Shown one piece after another: positions 2,550-12,057 of a stretch of DNA of 64,000 nucleotides. Below the pieces are notes generated by a model. The model was not told the DNA's origin and ran no database searches. It saw only the letters and a list, made by a program, of their open reading frames with translations. A program made the translations under genes and the position numbers. How positions within the stretch are numbered: the first letter of the stretch is position 1; each line of letters opens with the position of its first letter. Source of the DNA: an uncultured Gammaproteobacteria bacterium (GTDB lineage Bacteria > Patescibacteriota > Microgenomatia > UBA8517); contig OZ246419.1 of NCBI GenBank assembly GCA_965231135.1, forward strand, positions 733,865 through 797,864. The letters are read 5' to 3'.

Positions 2550-3170
2550 ATGGATAATACACAAAATACAAATGCAGGCGTTGATGAACGCGGCGTTGGT
2601 GCAAAGAAAATTCCTGGACATATTGTTATTGAACAAACAGATAACGAAAATGCCAAATGGTATGTGGTTCACACACAATCAGGACATGAAGCACGAGTCT
2701 CTGAGACTTTGAGACAAAGAGTTACAACTTTGGGATTAAACGGAAAAGTTTTTGAACTTCTTGTCCCAACTCAAGACAAAGTTGTTGTACGAGGCGGAAA
2801 AAAGGCAACTGTCAAAGAAAAAATTTTTCCTGGATATCTTCTTGTAAAAATGATTTTAGATGATGAAGTATGGCTTGCTATTCGTACAACTCCTGGAATT
2901 ACAGGATTCGTTGGAGTGGATAATAAACCAACACCAATTTCAGCTACAGAAGTTGCAAACATTCAAAAATTCGTCAGTAGTCCAGCTCCAAGATTTAAAA
3001 CAAAACTTGCAATTAGCGATGCTGTAAAAATTACAGATGGACCTTTTACAGGATTTTTGGGAACAGTTAATGAAGTTGATGAGGATAAAGGACGCGTCAA
3101 AGTTTTGGTTTCTATTTTTGGAAGAGAAACTCCAGTTGAACTAGATTTTCTTCAGGTTGTGAAAGTATAA
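2550..3170 (+). CDS. nusG: Transcription termination/antitermination factor NusG
   Basis: WYVVHTQSGHE... NGN domain and a C-terminal KOW (GPFTGFLGTVNEVDEDKGRVKVLVSIFGRETPVELDF). Confidence 0.9.
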   Translation: MDNTQNTNAGVDERGVGAKKIPGHIVIEQTDNENAKWYVVHTQSGHEARVSETLRQRVTTLGLNGKVFELLVPTQDKVVVRGGKKATVKEKIFPGYLLVKMILDDEVWLAIRTTPGITGFVGVDNKPTPISATEVANIQKFVSSPAPRFKTKLAISDAVKITDGPFTGFLGTVNEVDEDKGRVKVLVSIFGRETPVELDFLQVVKV

Positions 3171-3180
3171 AATATTAAAG

Positions 3181-3756
3181 CTAAGGCTTTTTAAAAACCA
3201 GTGCGTATTTTCCTGTTGTTGTTCCAGCCAGAGTAGCCTTAACAAAAGGATGTTTTTGAGATTCTTCTTTAAAAATATGTTTTATTTCTCCGTTTTCGTA
3301 TTCTTCACTTAATTCAAATCCTAATTTTTTGAATTCATCTATAACTTTTATTTTTGGTGATACGTCTGGTGTATAAGTTTCTACGATTATTACATTTCCT
3401 CCTGATTTTGCTTTCTCATAAAAACTTTTGCCTATTTCGTCTATCTGAGGATGGTCCGAAGCGCCAGCGAACCTTTTTTTAATATGTCCCATGACGTTTA
3501 CTGCTAAAATACTTGAGCATGAATTGTCCGGAGTAGGTATGTTTCTCGCATTACCTTGAACTCTAAGGATTCCAGAATATTCATTTAACCTCATTATTTC
3601 GAAATCTTCCGGGTTAATATTTTCCAATGCTTCGCGGCTTCTATCTACTAATACTCCGGGGCCTTTACCTCGCAGGTCCTGTCGCAATGTTCCAAGTAAC
3701 GGTGTGACTCCTGGTCCCATTTCTAGATTAATATCTAGATCTTTCTGGTCAGCCAT
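3181..3756 (-). CDS. Hypothetical protein (191 aa), sits between nusG and rplK on the opposite strand
   Basis: Intact ORF with native codon usage; no motif recognised. Confidence 0.5.
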   Translation of the reverse strand: MADQKDLDINLEMGPGVTPLLGTLRQDLRGKGPGVLVDRSREALENINPEDFEIMRLNEYSGILRVQGNARNIPTPDNSCSSILAVNVMGHIKKRFAGASDHPQIDEIGKSFYEKAKSGGNVIIVETYTPDVSPKIKVIDEFKKLGFELSEEYENGEIKHIFKEESQKHPFVKATLAGTTTGKYALVFKKP

Positions 3757-3810
3757 GAACTAATACTATATTCAAACTATTTTATTTGCAAGCTGAGATT
3801 TTTTATAAAA

Positions 3811-4074
3811 TTATTCTGTTTGTTTAAATTTTGGAACACTTTTCTTAAGTGCTTTCAAATAAGATACATAGTCTAAACAGACTCCTGCATTTCTTAAATT
3901 AAGATCTGTTTGAAGTCTGTCCCAAGCAGCTTTTGTCCATTCTCCGTCAGCTGATCCGTTTATGCATTGATTTTCAATATATTTTGCCATTATACATTCA
4001 CCAGTCATATCAAATGGGCATAAAATAATGTCTGGAAGATCAGGATTGGTACAAACTTCACTGTTTTCATTCAT
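3811..4074 (-). CDS. Hypothetical small Cys-rich protein (87 aa, 5 Cys)
   Basis: Intact ORF; cysteine pattern C8/C19/C27/C37/C66; no homology recognised. Confidence 0.4.
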   Translation of the reverse strand: MNENSEVCTNPDLPDIILCPFDMTGECIMAKYIENQCINGSADGEWTKAAWDRLQTDLNLRNAGVCLDYVSYLKALKKSVPKFKQTE

Positions 4075-4101
4075 ATGGTTGATATTATAGTCTTTTTCTA
4101 A

Positions 4102-4107
4102 TATAAT
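4102..4107 (+). promoter_or_regulatory. -10-like TATAAT upstream of rplK
   Basis: tataat at 4102-4107, about 45 nt before the rplK ATG (4152). Confidence 0.3.
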
Positions 4108-4151: not shown

Positions 4152-4580
4152 ATGGCAGGAAAGAAAATAAAGACAGTAGTTAAAATTAATCTTCAAGCTG
4201 GAGCAGCAACACCTGCACCACCAGTTGGAACAGCGCTTGGACAACACGGAGTCTCTATTATGGACTTTGTGAAGCAATACAACGATAAAACTGCTTCAAT
4301 GAAAGGAAATACAGTTCCTGCAGTTATTACAATTTATGAAGACCGCACTTTTGATTTTATTATCAAAATGGCACCAGTAAGCGATATGATTCGTAAAAAA
4401 CTTGGAATTGAAAAAGCATCACATAACCCAGGAAAAGAAATTGTTGCAACACTCACCAAACAACAGGCTGAAGAAATTGCAAAAGACAAACTAGTAGACT
4501 TAAATACTGATGATCTTGCAGCAGCAACAAAAATTGTTGCAGGCACTGCAAGAAGCATGGGAATTAAAACTGAACTTTAA
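4152..4580 (+). CDS. rplK: 50S ribosomal protein L11
   Basis: MAGKKIKTVVKINLQAGAATPAPPVGTALGQHGVSIMDFVKQYN... canonical L11; the true ATG is at 4152 inside the track ORF 4107..4580. Confidence 0.9.
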   Translation: MAGKKIKTVVKINLQAGAATPAPPVGTALGQHGVSIMDFVKQYNDKTASMKGNTVPAVITIYEDRTFDFIIKMAPVSDMIRKKLGIEKASHNPGKEIVATLTKQQAEEIAKDKLVDLNTDDLAAATKIVAGTARSMGIKTEL

Positions 4581-4606: not shown

Positions 4607-5296
4607 ATGGCAAACAAACAAATAATGAAAAGCAAAGCTGAAAAAGCAAAAGAAATGGAAGCAGCTCAAGCTGCTCCAGAAGCTAAAAAGACAAAGCGCG
4701 AAATTGTTGCAAAGGTTCGCGGAAAAAATTATCAAGAAACTAAAGCTAAAATTGACCACAATAAAAATTACACTCTAGCTGAAGCTATAAAATTCTTTAA
4801 GGAAAACAAAGATGGAGCTAAATTTGACCAAACTCTTGAATTACATATGATTGTCAAAAAAATTGGCCTTAATGTGAATGCAAATCTCCCCCATTCTTCT
4901 GGAAAAGAGAAAAAGGTTGAAGTTGCAGATGATGCAACTCTTAAAAAACTTGATGCAGGAAAAGTCGATTTTGATGTGCTTCTTGCAACAGCTGACATGA
5001 TGCCAAAACTTGTTAAATATGCAAGAATTTTAGGGCCAAAAGGAATGATGCCAAATCCTAAAAACGGAACTTTAATAAAAAGTACAGCTGATGCAAAGAA
5101 TTTCTCAGGAAATTCAAAAACTATAAAGACTGAAAAAGAAGCACCTTTAATTCATACAAGCTTTGGAAAAGTATCACAAAATGAAAAAGAATTAGTAGAA
5201 AATGCTGATGTGATACTTGATGCGGTAAACCGCAAACAAATTGTCCGTGTATTCATGAAATCTACAATGAGCCCAAGCTTGAAAGTACAGATTTAA
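4607..5296 (+). CDS. rplA: 50S ribosomal protein L1
   Basis: 229 aa; ...YARILGPKGMMPNPKNGT... L1 signature. Confidence 0.9.
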   Translation: MANKQIMKSKAEKAKEMEAAQAAPEAKKTKREIVAKVRGKNYQETKAKIDHNKNYTLAEAIKFFKENKDGAKFDQTLELHMIVKKIGLNVNANLPHSSGKEKKVEVADDATLKKLDAGKVDFDVLLATADMMPKLVKYARILGPKGMMPNPKNGTLIKSTADAKNFSGNSKTIKTEKEAPLIHTSFGKVSQNEKELVENADVILDAVNRKQIVRVFMKSTMSPSLKVQI

Positions 5297-5297
5297 G

Positions 5298-6170
5298 ATG
5301 ACTCCAGAACCAAACTCACGAAGATTGGTTAATGATGAAGGCGAATTATTAAAAATAAATAATTTTCTAGCGCAAAATACTTCTGCAGAACAAAATCGAC
5401 TTAGTTTACAACATGAAAGTGAAGTAAAAAAAGATTTACTGCGACAAAAAATGTGGCATATTATTTATGGATTTCAAGAAATAGATAGAGGTTTAGATGA
5501 AAAAATAATGTATTTATTCAATGATTCTCTCTCAGCCGCAGCAATAGTTATTAATTTTCCATTTATAAATGTTGAAAACGGAAATATAAATATTAGATAT
5601 TTAGCCGCAACAACTCAGGGCTTTGGATATTTATCTTTCAGCTTTGATAAAGTAATTAAAAGTGCTCAAGATACAATATTTTCCATAGAAATTCCTTTAA
5701 ATTCTGCTTATTCTGACATAGATAAAATTTATGCTTTGGCTCCAACACCTAGCGAGAATAATAAATCTCTTGACATAGATAATCTTAGAATACTTAACGA
5801 TTATTTTGACAAAATAAATGGCAATTTAGGCGAAGGAAAACCTGGAACTCTTGATCAATTGACCGAAGATGAGATGGGGCTGGTTTTTAAAAATAGTTGG
5901 GAATTAAGAAATAGTAGATTGCCTATAAATTTTAGTCTTGCTCAAAAGTTTGATGTGGCAATTGATTTACAAACTGTCTTAGATAAATTGACCAAAGTAA
6001 AACAAGCACAAATAAATGAAGCTAATATATCTGTGGATGAAGCTACAAATAGACTTAATTTAGCCAATGACTCTCTTGAAATATTGGGTAGAAAAGAAGA
6101 ACTAGAGCCAAGAATATCTGAAGTTGAAACAGATAAACCTAAAAAGAAAAAGAGATTTGTTCTTTTTTAA
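5298..6170 (+). CDS. Hypothetical protein (290 aa) inserted between rplA and rplJ
   Basis: ATG at 5298 overlaps the rplA stop (TAAgATG); no SD; ends with a KKKK tail; no motif recognised. Confidence 0.55.
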   Translation: MTPEPNSRRLVNDEGELLKINNFLAQNTSAEQNRLSLQHESEVKKDLLRQKMWHIIYGFQEIDRGLDEKIMYLFNDSLSAAAIVINFPFINVENGNINIRYLAATTQGFGYLSFSFDKVIKSAQDTIFSIEIPLNSAYSDIDKIYALAPTPSENNKSLDIDNLRILNDYFDKINGNLGEGKPGTLDQLTEDEMGLVFKNSWELRNSRLPINFSLAQKFDVAIDLQTVLDKLTKVKQAQINEANISVDEATNRLNLANDSLEILGRKEELEPRISEVETDKPKKKKRFVLF

Positions 6171-6230
6171 AAATCTGATATACTATCAATTACCAAAGAC
6201 AACACGCAGTTGAATGGTTCAATTTAAGTC

Positions 6231-6758
6231 GTGTCGAGGTATATGTTAAAACAAGATAAATCAACATTAATAAACGAGCTATCCAAAGACTTCAAGGATG
6301 CTTCTTCTATTTCATTAGTTGATTTCACTGGCATGAATATTGTTGCCCAGCAGGATCTCAAGAAAAAACTTAAAGAGGCAAAAGCACGCATGATTGTTGC
6401 TAAAAATACTTTAATTAAACTTGCAGCAAAGGATGCAAAACTTCCAGAAGATATAATAACTGATGAAATTTTAAGCGGACAAACTGCAGTAGTTTTTGGA
6501 AAAGAAGATGCAGTTTCCCCTATTCAAGCAATTGGAAACTTTGCAAAAGATAATGAAGCTCTTAAATTTAAGGCTGGAATTTTAGATGGAGCTTTTCAGG
6601 ACAAAGCTGGAATGGAAGCAATTTCCAAACTTCCAGGCAAAGAAGCTCTTAAAGGACAAGTTGTTGGCAATATCGCAAGCCCAATGTATATGCTTATTTC
6701 TAATTTGCAAGCGAGTGTTCAGGAATTAATCGGAACACTAACAGCGAAGGTGGGGTGA
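6231..6758 (+). CDS. rplJ: 50S ribosomal protein L10 (probable true start at ATG 6243)
   Basis: ...SLVDFTGMNIVAQQDLKKKLKEAKARMIVAKNTLIKLA... L10 pattern. Confidence 0.85.
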   Translation: MSRYMLKQDKSTLINELSKDFKDASSISLVDFTGMNIVAQQDLKKKLKEAKARMIVAKNTLIKLAAKDAKLPEDIITDEILSGQTAVVFGKEDAVSPIQAIGNFAKDNEALKFKAGILDGAFQDKAGMEAISKLPGKEALKGQVVGNIASPMYMLISNLQASVQELIGTLTAKVG

Positions 6759-6763
6759 TTTAA

Positions 6764-7153
6764 ATGGCAGAAGAAAAAAACAAAGTAACAAAAATAGTTG
6801 ATGAAATTGCAGAACTTACAGTTTTGGAACTTTCAGAACTAAACAAAGCATTGCAGGAGAAACTTGGAGTTACTCCTATGGCAATGGCAGCCCCAGCAGC
6901 AGGAGCCGCATCAGCAGATGCAGAGACAAGCGCAGCAGGAGCAAGCCAAACAGTTGTTATGACAAATGCAGGAGCAAATAAAATAGCTGTCATCAAAGCA
7001 CTTCGAGAAATTAATCCAAACCTTGGATTACAAGAAGCAAAAGCAATGACTGACACAGTTCCAGCAGAAGTACTTAAAGACGCTAAAGCAGAAGATGCTA
7101 AAGGCGCAGCTGATAAATTAAAAGCAGCTGGAGCAACTGTAGAATTAAAATAA
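6764..7153 (+). CDS. rplL: 50S ribosomal protein L7/L12
   Basis: Ala-rich flexible hinge, C-terminal ...KIAVIKALREINPNLGLQEAKAMTD...GATVELK. Confidence 0.9.
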   Translation: MAEEKNKVTKIVDEIAELTVLELSELNKALQEKLGVTPMAMAAPAAGAASADAETSAAGASQTVVMTNAGANKIAVIKALREINPNLGLQEAKAMTDTVPAEVLKDAKAEDAKGAADKLKAAGATVELK

Positions 7154-7195
7154 GAATTTTAATTCTGCGCGCAGAAGACTGCGGTAGAACTTAGA

Positions 7196-7225
7196 AAATC
7201 CCTCAAGAAATTGAGGGATTTTTAA
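7196..7225. terminator. Rho-independent, probably bidirectional, terminator between rplL and the convergent GATase1 gene
   Basis: aaatccctcaa-gaaa-ttgagggattt perfect 11-bp stem, followed by TTTTT on the + strand and TTTTCT on the - strand. Confidence 0.6.
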
Positions 7226-7228
7226 TGG

Positions 7229-8128
7229 TTATTGAGCATTTTGCCATGCAAAACGAAGAAAGTTTGATAGAATTATTTTTGCTTCATCGTTGTATGTTTC
7301 CCCTAAAGCTTTAATATCATCTATTTTTTTATTTTTCTTTTCCAATCTTTGTCTAACATCGTCTTTGTCTAAATAATTCATCATTTGTTCCCTGCTTTTT
7401 TCTGGATGAAATTGGAATCCATAGATTTTTCCAAGTTTAAATCCTTGAACTCCTCTTTCGTTTTCAAGCAGAACTTCACCGCCTTCAGGTAATTTAGTGA
7501 TAGTCATTTCGTGATCTTGAGGCACAAGAAACTCTTCAGGCAAGCCTCTTAAGACAGGATCTTCTCTGCTTCCTGTATAGCGTTTTACATAACTCCAACC
7601 TATTTCCCAGAAATTACTACCCTTTTGTGTTTTTAAATCTTTAAGTTGACCACCTAAAGCTTCGACAATTCCTTCTGCACCGAAGCAAATTCCAAGCAAT
7701 GGAATACGAGCATCGCGGATAGCATATACAAATTGATAAAATTCCTTTCTCCAGTCTTTTATAAGAACTCCTTTCTTAATCTCTCTTGTTTGGGGATTTT
7801 CGTGATCGATGACGCTTGGGCGAGCGATTAACTGACTTCCTGTAATAATAACTGCCTGATAATTATTCAATCTTTCGAAAGGAAGTAATAAATTGGCTTT
7901 GGTAACTGATTTATCTTTATCATCAGGGTGTTTTATTAAATCAATAACTTTTAGAGAAGCATTTTCGAGTATTCGTTTTTTATATTCCGTGTAGGTTTCA
8001 CCATTTTGTCTAGGAGTATCAAATAATCCTCCCGCAATGCTCACATACGGAGTTTGATCAACATTAAAATTGACAATAAGTACATTTGCTGGCCTTACAA
8101 TTTCTTTATCTTCTAGTTTCTCTGGCAT
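7229..8128 (-). CDS. Class-I glutamine amidotransferase-like / peptidase C26 (gamma-glutamyl hydrolase-like) protein
   Basis: Catalytic-triad signatures LLGICFGAEG (nucleophile Cys) and GFQFHPE (His-x-Glu); last gene of the ATP-grasp operon. Confidence 0.7.
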   Translation of the reverse strand: MPEKLEDKEIVRPANVLIVNFNVDQTPYVSIAGGLFDTPRQNGETYTEYKKRILENASLKVIDLIKHPDDKDKSVTKANLLLPFERLNNYQAVIITGSQLIARPSVIDHENPQTREIKKGVLIKDWRKEFYQFVYAIRDARIPLLGICFGAEGIVEALGGQLKDLKTQKGSNFWEIGWSYVKRYTGSREDPVLRGLPEEFLVPQDHEMTITKLPEGGEVLLENERGVQGFKLGKIYGFQFHPEKSREQMMNYLDKDDVRQRLEKKNKKIDDIKALGETYNDEAKIILSNFLRFAWQNAQ

Positions 8129-8132
8129 ACTC

Positions 8133-9020
8133 CTATTTTATCAAAGAATTGAGATATTTTTCTAATTCTGGTAATTCAGGAGAGATACTGGGGTCAAGAG
8201 TTAATCCTGGTCCTCTATTTATTTCAAAAACATAAACTTTTCCTTTTTTATCAATACAAATATCGACTCCAGAAATGTTTAAATCGACAGATTTTGTTCC
8301 TTGTATAGAATAATTTATTAATTCTTTAGAAATATTATTTTTATCTATCCAACCAGCAGAAGATTCTTCATCGTTTACTGAAATTTTGTTTTCAATAATT
8401 TTTCTAGTAGATTCTTCATGAATTCCAACAACTTCATTTCCCATTACAACAATTCGATATTCCTTATCTATTTCAACTTTTTCCTGGAATAAAAATCCGT
8501 TACTTTCATCTTTTTTAAGAAGTTTTTCGAAGTCTGCAATTTCGTTAATTATAAAAAGTCCATTTCTTTTTTGGCTCCATAAATTTTTAGCATAAATTGG
8601 AAAAGCAAAAGATTTCATAATTTCATCTTTTGAATTAATTATTTCTTCTCTGGAAAAATAAAAAGTATTAGGAACTGGAATATTCCCATATGCAATTAGA
8701 AGAAGATTGTTTAGTTTATCTTTGGAGGCGCCTACTTTTTCAAATGTTTTATCGATAAAAGGAATATTATTTTTTAAACAAAAAGTGGCAATTGATCCTG
8801 CCAGTGGAATATAATTTCGGGTTTGACGAAAATAGACAAGATCAAATTCCAACAAGTTTAAATCTCCAACAAAACATTCGATTTTTGAATCTATTATCGA
8901 TATTGATATTTCTGATAATTTTTTTAAAATAAATTTGTTATTTGAATTTTTATTTAAGTAATCGGTAATTTGATTATGTCTTGAAGTTATTTTATTAACC
9001 AAAATCAATATTTTTTTCAT
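8133..9020 (-). CDS. ATP-grasp ligase, divergent RimK-like paralog
   Basis: FPIYAKN (ATP-binding Lys), FQEKVE, YRIVVMGNEVVG, ISGVDICIDKKGKVYVFEINRGPGL (E-x-N Mg site). It lacks the DFRxN..GG motif of its neighbours. Confidence 0.65.
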   Translation of the reverse strand: MKKILILVNKITSRHNQITDYLNKNSNNKFILKKLSEISISIIDSKIECFVGDLNLLEFDLVYFRQTRNYIPLAGSIATFCLKNNIPFIDKTFEKVGASKDKLNNLLLIAYGNIPVPNTFYFSREEIINSKDEIMKSFAFPIYAKNLWSQKRNGLFIINEIADFEKLLKKDESNGFLFQEKVEIDKEYRIVVMGNEVVGIHEESTRKIIENKISVNDEESSAGWIDKNNISKELINYSIQGTKSVDLNISGVDICIDKKGKVYVFEINRGPGLTLDPSISPELPELEKYLNSLIK

Positions 9021-9895
9021 AAACTGACAAAATATTTAATAATTTCTGAAGCGATATTTTTATTTGTATATTTTTCCAATCCTTTAAATTGCGGGCCTAC
9101 ATTTACTTCTAATAAATAAGGCTTACCGTCAATGCCTATCATAATATCAACTCCTGCAATTTCAATTCCTGTTATTTTTGCAGCTTTTTGGGCAATTTCT
9201 TTGATTTCTTTATTTTTTTCTAAATCAAATATTTCTCCAGTTGCCCCTTGGGAAATATTATTTCTGAAATCGCCTTCCGCAGACTTTCTTTTCATTGCAG
9301 CAACAGCTTTAAAACCAACTGTAAAAATTCTCACATCACCGTCATTTGGAATAAATTCACGAAGTAGATATGTCTTCATTGGATTTTTGATCATAATATC
9401 TTTTCCTTCCTGAAAATTATTTATTAAAAACACACCTTTTCCTTGATGCATCTCAGAAATTTTCATGATTGCAGGTAATTTAAAGTTTTTTAACATTAAT
9501 TCAAGATTTTCTTCCGAATAAATTGAATATGTTTTTGGAGAGCGAATTTTATTTTCAAACTGTTTTAAGTAAAACCAACTCTGGATCGGATAATAATTAA
9601 AATTTGGATTTGCAACAACACTGTTTACAATTTTTGTTTTGGTGTTTTTTAATAAAAACTGGCATGCAACGAACCACTCGAGGCGCATTTTCGACTCGAC
9701 TCCGGCACAAAGATAAATCAAATCAAAATCAGAAAGAGATTTGCCGTTTATTGTAGGATTAAAAACTTCACCGTTAGTTTCTATAATTAAATCTTTTGAA
9801 TGACATCCTGTTACTTGATGGCCTAATTTTTGTGCTTCTTCCTGAAATCTAGTTATTTGACTTCCTTTAATTAAACCTACAATTAGAATTTTCAT
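9017..9895 (-). CDS. RimK-like ATP-grasp (alpha-L-glutamate ligase family)
   Basis: PAIMKISEMHQGKGVFLI, DVRIFTVGFKAVAAMKRKSAEGDFRNNISQGATGE, GVDIMIGIDGKPYLLEVNVGP. Confidence 0.75.
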   Translation of the reverse strand: MKILIVGLIKGSQITRFQEEAQKLGHQVTGCHSKDLIIETNGEVFNPTINGKSLSDFDLIYLCAGVESKMRLEWFVACQFLLKNTKTKIVNSVVANPNFNYYPIQSWFYLKQFENKIRSPKTYSIYSEENLELMLKNFKLPAIMKISEMHQGKGVFLINNFQEGKDIMIKNPMKTYLLREFIPNDGDVRIFTVGFKAVAAMKRKSAEGDFRNNISQGATGEIFDLEKNKEIKEIAQKAAKITGIEIAGVDIMIGIDGKPYLLEVNVGPQFKGLEKYTNKNIASEIIKYFVSL

Positions 9896-9898
9896 AAG

Positions 9899-10768
9899 TT
9901 AGCGGGCGTTTTTAATTGCATAATTTAAATATATTTTGGTTATATTTTCTCCAGTTGCCTTTTCCATTCCAACCATCCCAGGAGTGTGATTGACCTCCAA
10001 AATATAGTTTTTATTGTCTTTATCTATTAATACATCAACTCCCGCTACTTCAAGGCCAATTGCATCCATTGCATCTTTTGCTAGTTTCTTTAATTCAGGA
10101 GTTAGAGGGAACAGCTCAACAGAGCCGCCCAAGGAAAAGTTTGCTCTAAAATCCCCTGCTCTTGGAATTCTTCTCATACAATACATTTTTTCTCCAATTA
10201 CTAAAATTCTTAAATCGTATTTATAGTCAATAAAACCTTGAACAAGAATATTTTTTGCAGGATAATTTTCGCGGTCAAATTTATTTATAAAATTTACAAA
10301 TTCGCTATTGTCTTTTACAAGCCACACCTTTCCACCTTTGCCAGCTCTTGAGGATTTCATAACAAGCGGAAAACCCAATTTATCACCCAATCTATATAAA
10401 TCTTTGTATTCGCGAGTACTGAATGTGTCTGGGACAGGAATTTTATGAAGTATTAATTTCAAAATATCATATGACTTATTCATTGAGTATTTTTGAGCAA
10501 AAAGATTATTGTCAAATATTTTTGCTCTTCTATAGCCAAGATAGTCTTTTAAAGATTCAAGAGATTTCATTGTAGAGAATAGCCCGCGAATAATTACAAG
10601 ATCTGAATCCGGAATTTCCGGACTAAAGGAAAATTCGTGACCTTTTTTAAAAAATTTGAAAGAACTAAAATCGATTAATTTAAATTCGTGACCAAGAGCA
10701 AGCGATTCTTCTTTGATCCTTCTTACTTCATCCAAACTTGCCGCTGATGTAATTAAAGTTATTTTCAT
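9899..10768 (-). CDS. RimK-like ATP-grasp (alpha-L-glutamate ligase family)
   Basis: FPLVMKSSRAGKGGKVWLV, DLRILVIGEKMYCMRRIPRAGDFRANFSLGGSVE, GVDVLIDKDNKNYILEVNHTPG. Confidence 0.75.
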   Translation of the reverse strand: MKITLITSAASLDEVRRIKEESLALGHEFKLIDFSSFKFFKKGHEFSFSPEIPDSDLVIIRGLFSTMKSLESLKDYLGYRRAKIFDNNLFAQKYSMNKSYDILKLILHKIPVPDTFSTREYKDLYRLGDKLGFPLVMKSSRAGKGGKVWLVKDNSEFVNFINKFDRENYPAKNILVQGFIDYKYDLRILVIGEKMYCMRRIPRAGDFRANFSLGGSVELFPLTPELKKLAKDAMDAIGLEVAGVDVLIDKDNKNYILEVNHTPGMVGMEKATGENITKIYLNYAIKNAR

Positions 10769-12057
10769 CTTTTTTCAATCCATGGTTTTACTAAAAAGCC
10801 CTGCAGATCTGTTCTACCAATTAAAACTTTAAAAGTCAATTTGCTGCGATCGGAAACCCCCATTGTTGTTTTTATTCTTTTTCCTGCCAATCTTAATGAT
10901 ACATTAATAACAGGCCAATTGTTTTCTCCTAAAGCACTTAATTTTCTTCGATAAAATAAGATTTTTTCTTTCTCTAAAAGTCCTAATTTTTTGGCAAATT
11001 CTCTGTCAATTGAACTACTCCATGCTCCAGTATCTACTTTCGCTAAAACTTTAATCCAGTGGCCATTTGCATCTCTTACTTTAATTTCCTCAGACGCCCC
11101 AATCGTTAAAATACCATCTTTTGCGGCAACGCGATCTGCAAACCTTTCAGCAAAAAGAGCTTTGGCTATATTTACACCATGCTTTTCGTCGCGAACATCC
11201 AAATCTTCTACTCTATCTAATCTTTTTTTGAGGCCTGCCATATTGGCTAACTGAATTTGAAGACCAGGCCGGGCGTTTAATTCCAAAACCATTGGGCCTT
11301 TTTCAGGATCAATAACCATATCAACTCCTGCAAAGCCTAATCCTGAAACAATTGCAGTTTTTACAGCTATTTCCAAAACTTTTGTCCAGTCGGGAATTTT
11401 TATTCCGTGAAGCTTGTGATTTGTTTCCGGTTTAAATTTTATTAATTCTCCATGCCAAATTGCTTTTGTAGTAATTCCTGTTGCTATATCAACTCCTACT
11501 CCAATTGCTCCTTGGTGAAGATTTGCATGACCCCCAGACTCTTTTGTGGGAAGACGGAGCATTGCCATTACAGGAATTTTATTAAAGACAATTACGCGAA
11601 TATCAGGAGTTCCGCGATATGAAAATCTTCTGAAACTTTTATTTCTTCCGACATATTCCTGAACAAAAGCAACATCAGGCTCGTTTTTTAAACTATATGC
11701 GCCCTCTAAAATATCAAGCGTATGAAGTTTTAAATCCGCATCTGTAATTTCTTCACGCTGAGTTGTAAGCCAAACGTCTGGCTTTATTCTTTTTTTAACA
11801 ACAATAATTCCCTCACCTCCAAAGCCGCGGCTGGGCTTTAATGCAAAACTATCTGGAAGAGTTTTCCAATCGAAATCAAAAACTTCCTTTGCATCACGAA
11901 ATTTTTTGTAAACATCCGGGGTCGGAATATCTGCTTTTTTAAGAGTCTTTGCCATTTGCAGTTTTGAGTCAGCAATTCTTCTCGCTTTTGGTGAATTAAG
12001 CGGAGTTAAATATAATTGAGAACGGGCATTTAGCCCTAAAATTGATGAGACTTTCAT
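10765..12057 (-). CDS. Fusion protein: alpha-L-glutamate-ligase-related ATP-grasp (TIGR02291-like) N-terminal domain plus a C-terminal retropepsin-like aspartic protease domain (the so-called ATP-dependent zinc protease family)
   Basis: N-terminus ILGLNARSQLYLTPLNSPKARRIADSKL... and GGHANLHQGAIG match the RimK-related E-ligase family; C-terminus WIKVLAKVDTGAWSSSID carries a DTGA aspartyl-protease motif (nt ~11023-11034). Confidence 0.7.
   Translation of the reverse strand: MKVSSILGLNARSQLYLTPLNSPKARRIADSKLQMAKTLKKADIPTPDVYKKFRDAKEVFDFDWKTLPDSFALKPSRGFGGEGIIVVKKRIKPDVWLTTQREEITDADLKLHTLDILEGAYSLKNEPDVAFVQEYVGRNKSFRRFSYRGTPDIRVIVFNKIPVMAMLRLPTKESGGHANLHQGAIGVGVDIATGITTKAIWHGELIKFKPETNHKLHGIKIPDWTKVLEIAVKTAIVSGLGFAGVDMVIDPEKGPMVLELNARPGLQIQLANMAGLKKRLDRVEDLDVRDEKHGVNIAKALFAERFADRVAAKDGILTIGASEEIKVRDANGHWIKVLAKVDTGAWSSSIDREFAKKLGLLEKEKILFYRRKLSALGENNWPVINVSLRLAGKRIKTTMGVSDRSKLTFKVLIGRTDLQGFLVKPWIEKR

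Follow-up and report, generated by a model that had tools for sequence, protein, structure and literature searches.

A gene of an undescribed family directly behind rplA in one small clade of Woesebacteria

The stretch of DNA analysed here (the window: 64,000 nucleotides (nt) of contig OZ246419.1, assembly GCA_965231135.1) holds, between the ribosomal protein genes rplA (L1) and rplJ (L10), an open reading frame (ORF) of 290 codons, and the question raised by this locus is whether the frame is a gene at all, how it came to lie inside a ribosomal protein cluster, and whether its product has anything to do with the ribosome. The ORF is a genuine protein-coding gene, and it belongs to a protein family that was previously undescribed and is restricted to one small Woesebacteria clade. 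The reading favoured here, to which we assign a probability of roughly 55%, is that of a vertically inherited gene, gained once in this clade and fixed as the third cistron of the rplK-rplA unit, whose product is a scaffold that may act at the ribosome. Bacteria of the candidate phyla radiation are known for the unusual composition of their ribosomes and, to our knowledge, few clade-specific ribosomal additions have been pinned down among them; an undescribed family locked behind rplA in a single Woesebacteria clade would be a concrete and testable candidate for such an addition.

Coding signature and junction with rplA

The ORF and the two genes on either side of it are:

5298..6170, plus strand: the ORF of interest, ATG to TAA, 290 amino acids (aa), undescribed protein family (coding signature, family search, synteny, fold model)
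4607..5296, plus strand: rplA (L1), 229 aa; PF00687 Ribosomal_L1, E 5.7e-21; stop codon TAA at 5294-5296
6243..6758, plus strand: rplJ (L10); PF00466 Ribosomal_L10, E 1.3e-22; Shine-Dalgarno (SD) duplex of -7.2 kcal/mol

An earlier, sequence-only reading of this DNA had pointed to a 290-aa frame starting at 5298 behind rplA, which the ORF listing bears out to the nucleotide, and had let its ATG overlap the rplA stop codon, which has to be corrected: the junction reads TAA-g-ATG, with the ATG 1 nt past the stop. At the base composition of the window (35.7% GC), 290 codons free of stops would occur by chance with P ~7e-10. The codon-usage score of the ORF (log-odds, 0.316 bits/codon) is that of the other long ORFs (0.314 +/- 0.10), scores in the five alternative frames run from -0.18 to -1.46 while the frame of the ORF is positive in each 30-codon block, and its base composition by codon position follows GC1 > GC2 > GC3.

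Relatives, synteny and phylogeny

When 1.84 billion cluster representatives were scanned exhaustively with HMMER, nine relatives of the ORF protein came up (E 4.6e-16 to 8.4e-4, ~30% identity), which brings the family to ten representatives with pairwise identities of 24-43%. Six of the nine are 277-294 aa long and can be aligned over their full length; the other three, from contig ends or a broken assembly, are shorter. The family shares the motifs DGxL..IQDYLAS, RVVYxF, VINxP, IRYLxATxxGFGY, LNxYF and DLQxIL, as well as a basic C-terminus (LKRKRG or KKKKRFxLF). A word-indexed search with the ORF protein gave its self-match only ('MAG TPA: hypothetical protein VG895_00895 [Patescibacteria group bacterium]'), the same search with the family alignment as query gave P0007 and the ORF protein only, and two JGI metagenome scans with family sub-alignments gave no relatives, from which it follows that the family is rare. 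Neither the ORF protein nor the family had a consistent match in Pfam, NCBIfam, PHROG or PADLOC, in agreement with the sequence-only reading, which had seen no recognisable motif, and the family profile found nothing at E <= 10 among all PDB chain sequences. A diverged paralogue of L10 or L1 was considered and rejected, given hhalign probabilities of 0.1% (L10 alignment) and 1.9% (L1 alignment).

Nine loci have a readable context, i.e. the window and the loci designated L082, L083, L084/L085, L086, L087, L088, L089 and L090, and in all nine the family gene lies directly 3' of rplA, co-oriented with the ribosomal protein operon and with no terminator in between, at a distance of 0-8 nt. The rplA stop and the family ATG are 1, 3, 8, 0, 6, 5 and 1 nt apart in seven loci; in L089 the distance is 1 nt and in L090 8 nt. 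Carriers occur in the samples SRR12170516, SRR29230221, SRR31418081, SRR21686403 and ERR7626357 and in the assemblies GCA_964587425.1 and GCA_040959485.1. The next gene is rplJ in the window, L082, L084, L086, L087 and L088; L090 has an unrelated 108-aa ORF there instead.

By their L1 sequences, the genomes closest to the window are Woesebacteria. The carriers of the gene are monophyletic in 200/200 bootstraps (neighbour-joining on concatenated NusG, L11, L1, L10 and L12), with the ORF-less Woesebacteria L002-L006 as their sister group, and L1 of the window is 63-78% identical to its orthologues inside the carrier clade versus 57-62% outside. In L003 and L005, the nearest lineages outside the clade, rplA and rplJ are adjacent without the ORF, separated by spacers of 236 nt and 136 nt. 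Since the carriers form one clade, their sisters are without the gene and its position is constant, the simplest history would be that the clade acquired the gene once, at its base, and has since passed it on vertically.

The sequence-only reading had taken the gene to be lineage-specific, and a gene of one monophyletic clade embedded in the rplK-rplA-rplJ-rplL cluster is what was found; looking at conservation and position in related genomes, which it had proposed as a check, yielded the nine loci with a homologue 0-8 nt 3' of rplA. It had also named close relatives with adjacent rplA and rplJ and no such gene as evidence that would count against its proposal, and this applies to one half only: such relatives exist outside the clade (L003, L005), while inside it the gene is kept in spite of the divergence to 24-43% identity.

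Leader and promoter of rplJ

The spacer between the ORF and rplJ is 72 nt long when rplJ is taken to start at ATG 6243, for which a GAGG 3 nt upstream and the N-termini of orthologues speak, and 60 nt when counted to GTG 6231, where the longest frame opens; the 60-70 nt put forward in the sequence-only reading thus holds for the GTG and falls slightly short for the ATG. That reading had further placed the ORF where the L10(L12)4 leader is usually found. The leader has not been displaced, as a compact L10(L12)4-type leader together with a putative promoter is retained between the ORF and rplJ, judging from the following two elements and their conservation:

6157..6184, plus strand: putative rplJ promoter, -35 TTGTTC at 6157-6162 within the last codons of the ORF, 16-nt spacer, -10 TATACT at 6179-6184
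6191..6242, plus strand: compact L10(L12)4 leader/operator, UACC-AAAGACA-[ACACG]-loop-[CGTGT]-CGAGG-UAU (sub-threshold RF00557 match, alignment, paired stem, fold)

At gathering level Rfam reports three tRNAs only in the window. A permissive scan with RF00557 (L10_leader) gave a match at 6175-6316 of 24.8 bits (E 0.14 in a 1.3-kb search), which does not reach the gathering score of 44 bits and of which the best-aligned part is UUACCAAAGACAACACG...CGUGUCGAGGUAUA. Three relatives score 34-36.5 bits at the same place 5' of rplJ, likewise below threshold, and in L002 the match lies beyond a 3.3-kb insertion. All 12 loci compared have the 23S-mimic core, CCnAAGAnA-[5 nt]-loop-[5 nt]-[CT]GAGG (CGAGG in 11, TGAGG in L007), and its 5-nt arms pair in 5/5 positions in each of them, the helix being preserved through compensatory changes with at least seven different stem sequences (ACACG/CGTGT, AAGCG/CGCTT, GTGTG/CACAC, GTGTG/CGCAC, GAGTG/CATTC, GTGCG/CGCAC, GCTCG/CGAGC, GTACG/CGTAC and GTAGG/CCTAC). 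In the window, L082, L084, L086, L087 and L088, 3 nt lie between the end of the core and the rplJ ATG. The operator GAGG hence doubles as the SD sequence of rplJ. Strong SD-like sites are few in the window, this being one of them, and in the predicted RNA fold the pairing of UACC with GGUA places it inside the operator helix.

A -10 hexamer (at least 5/6 to TATAAT) precedes the core by 7-9 nt in 12/12 loci. The -35 of the window is weak (3/6), and a generic promoter scan did not report this site. In five of seven carrier loci the 3' end of the ORF overlaps the putative -35, with the stop codon 3-30 nt before the -10, and in three of those five the -35 sequence TTGAAA encodes Leu-Lys of ...LKRKRG.

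Control of the rplJL leader by L10(L12)4 is translational in Escherichia coli and works by attenuation in Bacillus subtilis (Yakhnin et al. 2015, PMC4538822). The window core UACC-AAGACA-helix-CGAGGUA agrees with the RF00557 model consensus, and the ORF-less loci L002, L003, L005, L006 and L007 (Woesebacteria and a Levyibacteria outgroup) resemble the attenuator of B. subtilis further, with 50-150 nt after the core that hold a GC-rich hairpin and a U-run. Unlike these, the window and all other ORF-carrying loci have no such hairpin and U-run between core and rplJ ATG. With the GAGG only 3 nt from the start codon and the hairpin absent, binding of L10(L12)4 at the compact leader would be expected to block rplJ initiation directly, by occlusion of the start site rather than by attenuation, and the two leader forms in sister lineages suggest that a switch from attenuation to translational occlusion took place. 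This change coincides with the gain of the ORF on the same branch; the two may be functionally linked or may merely coincide. In either case the locus offers a natural comparison of an attenuator-type and a compact, SD-embedded L10(L12)4 leader in sister lineages (window 6191-6242 compared to L003:6750-6902, L005:6206-6293, L006:7008-7106, L002:9715-9930 and L007:7141-7260).

Transcription and translation of the ORF

The remaining elements of the two transcription units are:

4079..4107, plus strand: promoter-like site 5' of rplK, TTGATA-17-TATAAT, 11/12 (consensus match only)
4152..4580, plus strand: rplK (L11), 67-89% identical to L11 of related loci
6764..7153, plus strand: rplL (L7/L12) (ORF listing, comparison with related loci)
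7194..7223, plus strand: terminator-like hairpin 3' of rplL, 13-bp stem

The longest frame of rplK opens at TTG 4107, and ATG 4152 is its probable start. Between rplK and the hairpin at 7194-7223 there is no terminator-like site on the plus strand. The promoter-like site at 4079..4107 is the probable origin of an rplK-rplA-ORF transcript, with the restriction that promoter-like sites picked up by a consensus scan are not more numerous in this region than in shuffled sequence.

As the sequence-only reading had stated, the ORF has no SD sequence (anti-SD duplex of -0.7 kcal/mol), and the same goes for the family gene starts in 7/7 loci (+0.4 to -3.3 kcal/mol). SD-like sites do not, however, exceed chance at gene starts in the window generally: ~18% of 39 ORFs of at least 150 aa reach -4 kcal/mol (with the first ATG taken as the start of each), compared to 19.5% of random 20-mers. 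The rplA and nusG genes also lack an SD, rplJ and rplL being the exceptions that have one, and it seems that initiation in this organism is largely SD-independent. Since most genes of the window lack an SD, its absence before the ORF says little, and the coupling to L1 which the sequence-only reading had deduced from it does not follow. The stop/start spacing of 0-8 nt in all nine loci does fit termination-reinitiation.

In gene order and in its two-unit logic the locus corresponds to the rplKAJL cluster of E. coli, including a promoter-like site before rplK, a separate -10 box and L10(L12)4-type operator before rplJ, and a hairpin after rplL (PMC3616713). It differs in the extra 290-codon cistron 1 nt after rplA, in an rplJ leader of only ~50 nt from the first conserved base to the ATG, and in what follows rplL, which is not rpoBC, the next genes lying on the minus strand. 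In E. coli, L1 represses the coupled rplK-rplA pair (PMC3616713); if this feedback holds here, by analogy the ORF would come under the same control. A further difference is that the Rfam scan gave no L1-binding leader near rplK or rplA.

Taken together as a proposed mechanism, the ORF would be transcribed from the rplK promoter, and ribosomes finishing rplA would reinitiate on it, so that its output would track the synthesis of L11 and L1 and any L1 feedback on that messenger RNA, while rplJL would keep its own promoter and an operator acting on translation.

Protein features and predicted fold

The ORF protein is acidic (pI 5.0; 44 D+E versus 35 K+R) and ends in PKKKKRFVLF, as had been noticed in the sequence-only reading, which described an acidic protein with a KKKK tail. 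Of the seven full-length members of the family, six combine a body of pI ~4.8 with a basic stretch (pI 9.3-11.5) over the last 25 residues. This basic tail is also kept in L090, where no rplJ promoter follows, and must therefore be under constraint as protein sequence, beyond any role of its DNA as a promoter. The invariant positions of the family are mostly aromatic, Gly or Pro, without a conserved catalytic constellation, and therefore point to a structural protein rather than an enzyme.

An AlphaFold2 (AF2) model built on the ten-sequence family alignment is of medium confidence, with a mean predicted local distance difference test score (pLDDT) of 68.6 and a predicted template modelling score (pTM) of 0.64; a single-sequence AlphaFold prediction of the ORF protein has a pLDDT of 38. 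The AF2 model contains, by residue:

13-62: predicted helix
71-116: four predicted strands
~117-153: poorly modelled loop
154-173: predicted helix
184-209: three predicted strands
217-262: predicted helix
265-290: disordered tail, pLDDT <50

The long helices are amphipathic but lack a clean heptad in their hydrophobic periodicity.

The XRCC4 superfamily (XRCC4, XLF, PAXX, SAS-6 and CCDC61) consists of eukaryotic scaffolds with a head, a coiled coil and a low-complexity tail (PMC7267773), and the predicted order of four strands, helix, three strands, long helix and disordered tail is shared by the ORF protein, in which a predicted long stalk (helix 217-262) likewise follows the head and is followed by a low-complexity tail (265-290). 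The same article places a Ku-binding motif at the extreme C-terminus of XLF (PMC7267773). On the other hand, there is no sequence or profile similarity (the search of PDB chains at E <= 10 included, and no Pfam family common to the members), the ORF protein has an extra N-terminal helix of 50 residues, and it comes from a bacterial ribosomal protein operon whereas the known scaffolds are eukaryotic. A literature search, which was not exhaustive, brought up no report of a prokaryotic member of the superfamily. At the C-terminus of XLF a short basic cluster precedes a hydrophobic motif that binds Ku, loosely like the KKKKRF[VG]LF of the family. The XRCC4-like architecture is, at roughly even odds, a lead and not a membership; if true, a scaffold architecture so far known from eukaryotes only would extend to bacteria. 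PUR or Whirly-like repeats (beta-beta-beta-beta-alpha, twice) compare less well, as only 55 residues align, the scores are well below those of the XRCC4-type matches, and they have no counterpart to the long terminal helices of the ORF protein.

Function and competing explanations

The product of the ORF would be a non-enzymatic scaffold: a small beta-rich head flanked by two long helices, one N-terminal and one C-terminal, in a body that is acidic apart from its disordered, basic tail. It would probably self-associate via its helices and bind nucleic acid or an acidic partner with its tail. In view of the fixed linkage to rplA, the likeliest partner would be the ribosome, or an assembly intermediate, near the L1 stalk or the L7/L12 stalk. 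This is the weakest step of the proposal; what makes a ribosomal role plausible is the gene context. The more specific picture, i.e. an XRCC4/SAS-6-type head-and-stalk scaffold coupled to L1 that serves as a clade-specific ribosome accessory at the L1 stalk, the L7/L12 stalk or an assembly intermediate, and whose gain coincided with the switch of rplJL from attenuation to occlusion, is unlikely.

Several observations weigh against the favoured reading. Conservation and rate are not those of a ribosomal component: the gene occurs in one clade only, and the family has diverged to 24-43% identity where L1, L11 and L12 from the same pairs of genomes share 63-89%, i.e. about 3x faster. Its codon-usage score is only average, whereas rplK, rplA, rplJ and rplL score 0.45-0.76, which argues against a stoichiometric core component of the ribosome. 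Tight spacing and missing SD sequences are common in this compact genome and do not prove translational coupling to rplA. As for the fold, its assignment depends on the ten sequences of the family alignment, and Foldseek found nothing significant in PDB and BFVD, with XLF entries at E 1.6-2.0.

Moreover, the position itself is one at which genes come and go. The gap between rplA and rplJ holds a 246-aa ORF, a sigma-factor-like protein of 372 aa (minus strand) and a 285-aa ORF in L002 (L002:6583-9930), over 4.8 kb in L004, where a 490-aa membrane protein is encoded (L004:6583-11407), and a 105-aa ORF in L006 (L006:6622-7106), so that the junction is a gene-gain hot spot in the sister Woesebacteria. 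Because it gains unrelated genes there, position alone is weak evidence for a ribosomal function. The junction ORFs of L002 and L006 were compared by hhalign as possible members of the family, and no relationship was seen. Between the family gene of L090 (GCA_009772315.1, WNFM01122699.1) and the unrelated 108-aa ORF, at L090:4889-4921, lie 11 codons, MSPSVKLQIA*, that resemble the C-terminus of L1, while the rplA of L090 itself ends in MSPAVKISF. This relic looks like the footprint of a recombination event in which a cassette arrived together with the 3' end of a foreign rplA, which is a further point against the favoured reading.

The main competing explanation is accordingly that of a hitch-hiker: the protein would be a clade-specific scaffold without a ribosomal role (nucleoid- or DNA-associated, for example, or cytoplasmic), whose gene sits in a recombination-permissive gap between operons and is kept there for its strong, constitutive expression. 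The unrelated genes that sister lineages have at this junction, the relic in L090, the fast evolution and average codon usage of the family, and a second variable island without conserved contents in the nusG-rplK gap all fit this explanation, as do the best fold matches, which are DNA-repair and centriole scaffolds and not ribosomal proteins. What it does not readily accommodate is that the exact position and the 0-8 nt spacing have been kept in nine of nine loci through such a divergence, while the other junction contents are not conserved, and that no second copy of the family was seen away from rplA, the window holding one and the readable relatives all having theirs behind rplA. It is a real possibility, though less likely than the favoured reading. 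Even if the protein is unrelated to ribosomes, the locus shows that in this lineage genes are gained preferentially in the gaps which separate nusG, rplKA and rplJL.

Alternatively, it could be the act of translating the ORF that matters and not its product, with ribosomes near the stop codon (~20 nt before the L10 operator) modulating the occupancy of the rplJ promoter or the folding of the leader, as with the leader peptide of rplJL in B. subtilis, the translation of which raises rplJL expression (PMC4538822). The way in which the 3' end of the ORF runs into the -35 in five of seven loci and stops shortly before the -10 would suit such a mechanism. However, the motifs IRYLxATxxGFGY, LNxYF and DLQxIL are conserved at ~30% identity, as are the length and the predicted secondary structure; conserved amino-acid motifs among relatives so far diverged indicate that selection acts on the protein, and L090 keeps the gene without an rplJ downstream. 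This explanation is very unlikely. A mobile, defence or toxin-type accessory gene is most improbable as well: its narrow and patchy distribution would be in keeping with one, and one of the ten members has a marginal PADLOC match to AbiZ (E 1e-4), which was disregarded, but neither the window protein nor the family as a whole has a match in PHROG or PADLOC, codon usage is native, there is no partner gene, the flanks of the ORF, searched for direct repeats as a sign of insertion, gave nothing but short A-rich chance matches, and the pattern is strictly vertical, with tail types common to sub-groups in a manner consistent with the ribosomal protein tree. A spurious or decaying frame in an expanded spacer, to which the bare annotation as 'hypothetical protein' and the copy in L090 with one apparent frameshift and a run of N might point, is effectively refuted by the improbability of the frame by chance, its in-frame codon signature at the genome mean, and intact full-length orthologues in at least seven independent assemblies.

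Neighbouring genes

The ribosomal protein cluster is preceded in the window by:

2550-3170, plus strand: nusG
3181-4074, minus strand: two ORFs between nusG and rplK, of 191 aa (weak methyltransferase-like match) and 87 aa

In relatives the nusG-rplK gap holds 1-7 mostly different small ORFs, nearly all on the minus strand. A literature search returned nothing relevant on this operon arrangement in Woesebacteria. The L1 protein has a Lys/Glu-rich N-terminal extension (4607-4720 in the window) of highly variable length; L1 measures 193-244 aa in the ORF-carrying clade versus 262-303 aa in the ORF-less sisters, and the Pfam match covers residues 113-223 only of the window L1. On the other side, the minus strand from 7229 to 12057 encodes a class-I glutamine amidotransferase-like gene and then four ATP-grasp-like genes, arranged with 4-nt overlaps or gaps of a few nt. 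The latter four resemble genes annotated by Pfam as RimK-type in related loci, a likeness to those loci only. Relatives keep the amidotransferase/ATP-grasp cluster 3' of rplL whether or not they carry the ORF, and in them it continues with a 7TM_transglut gene.

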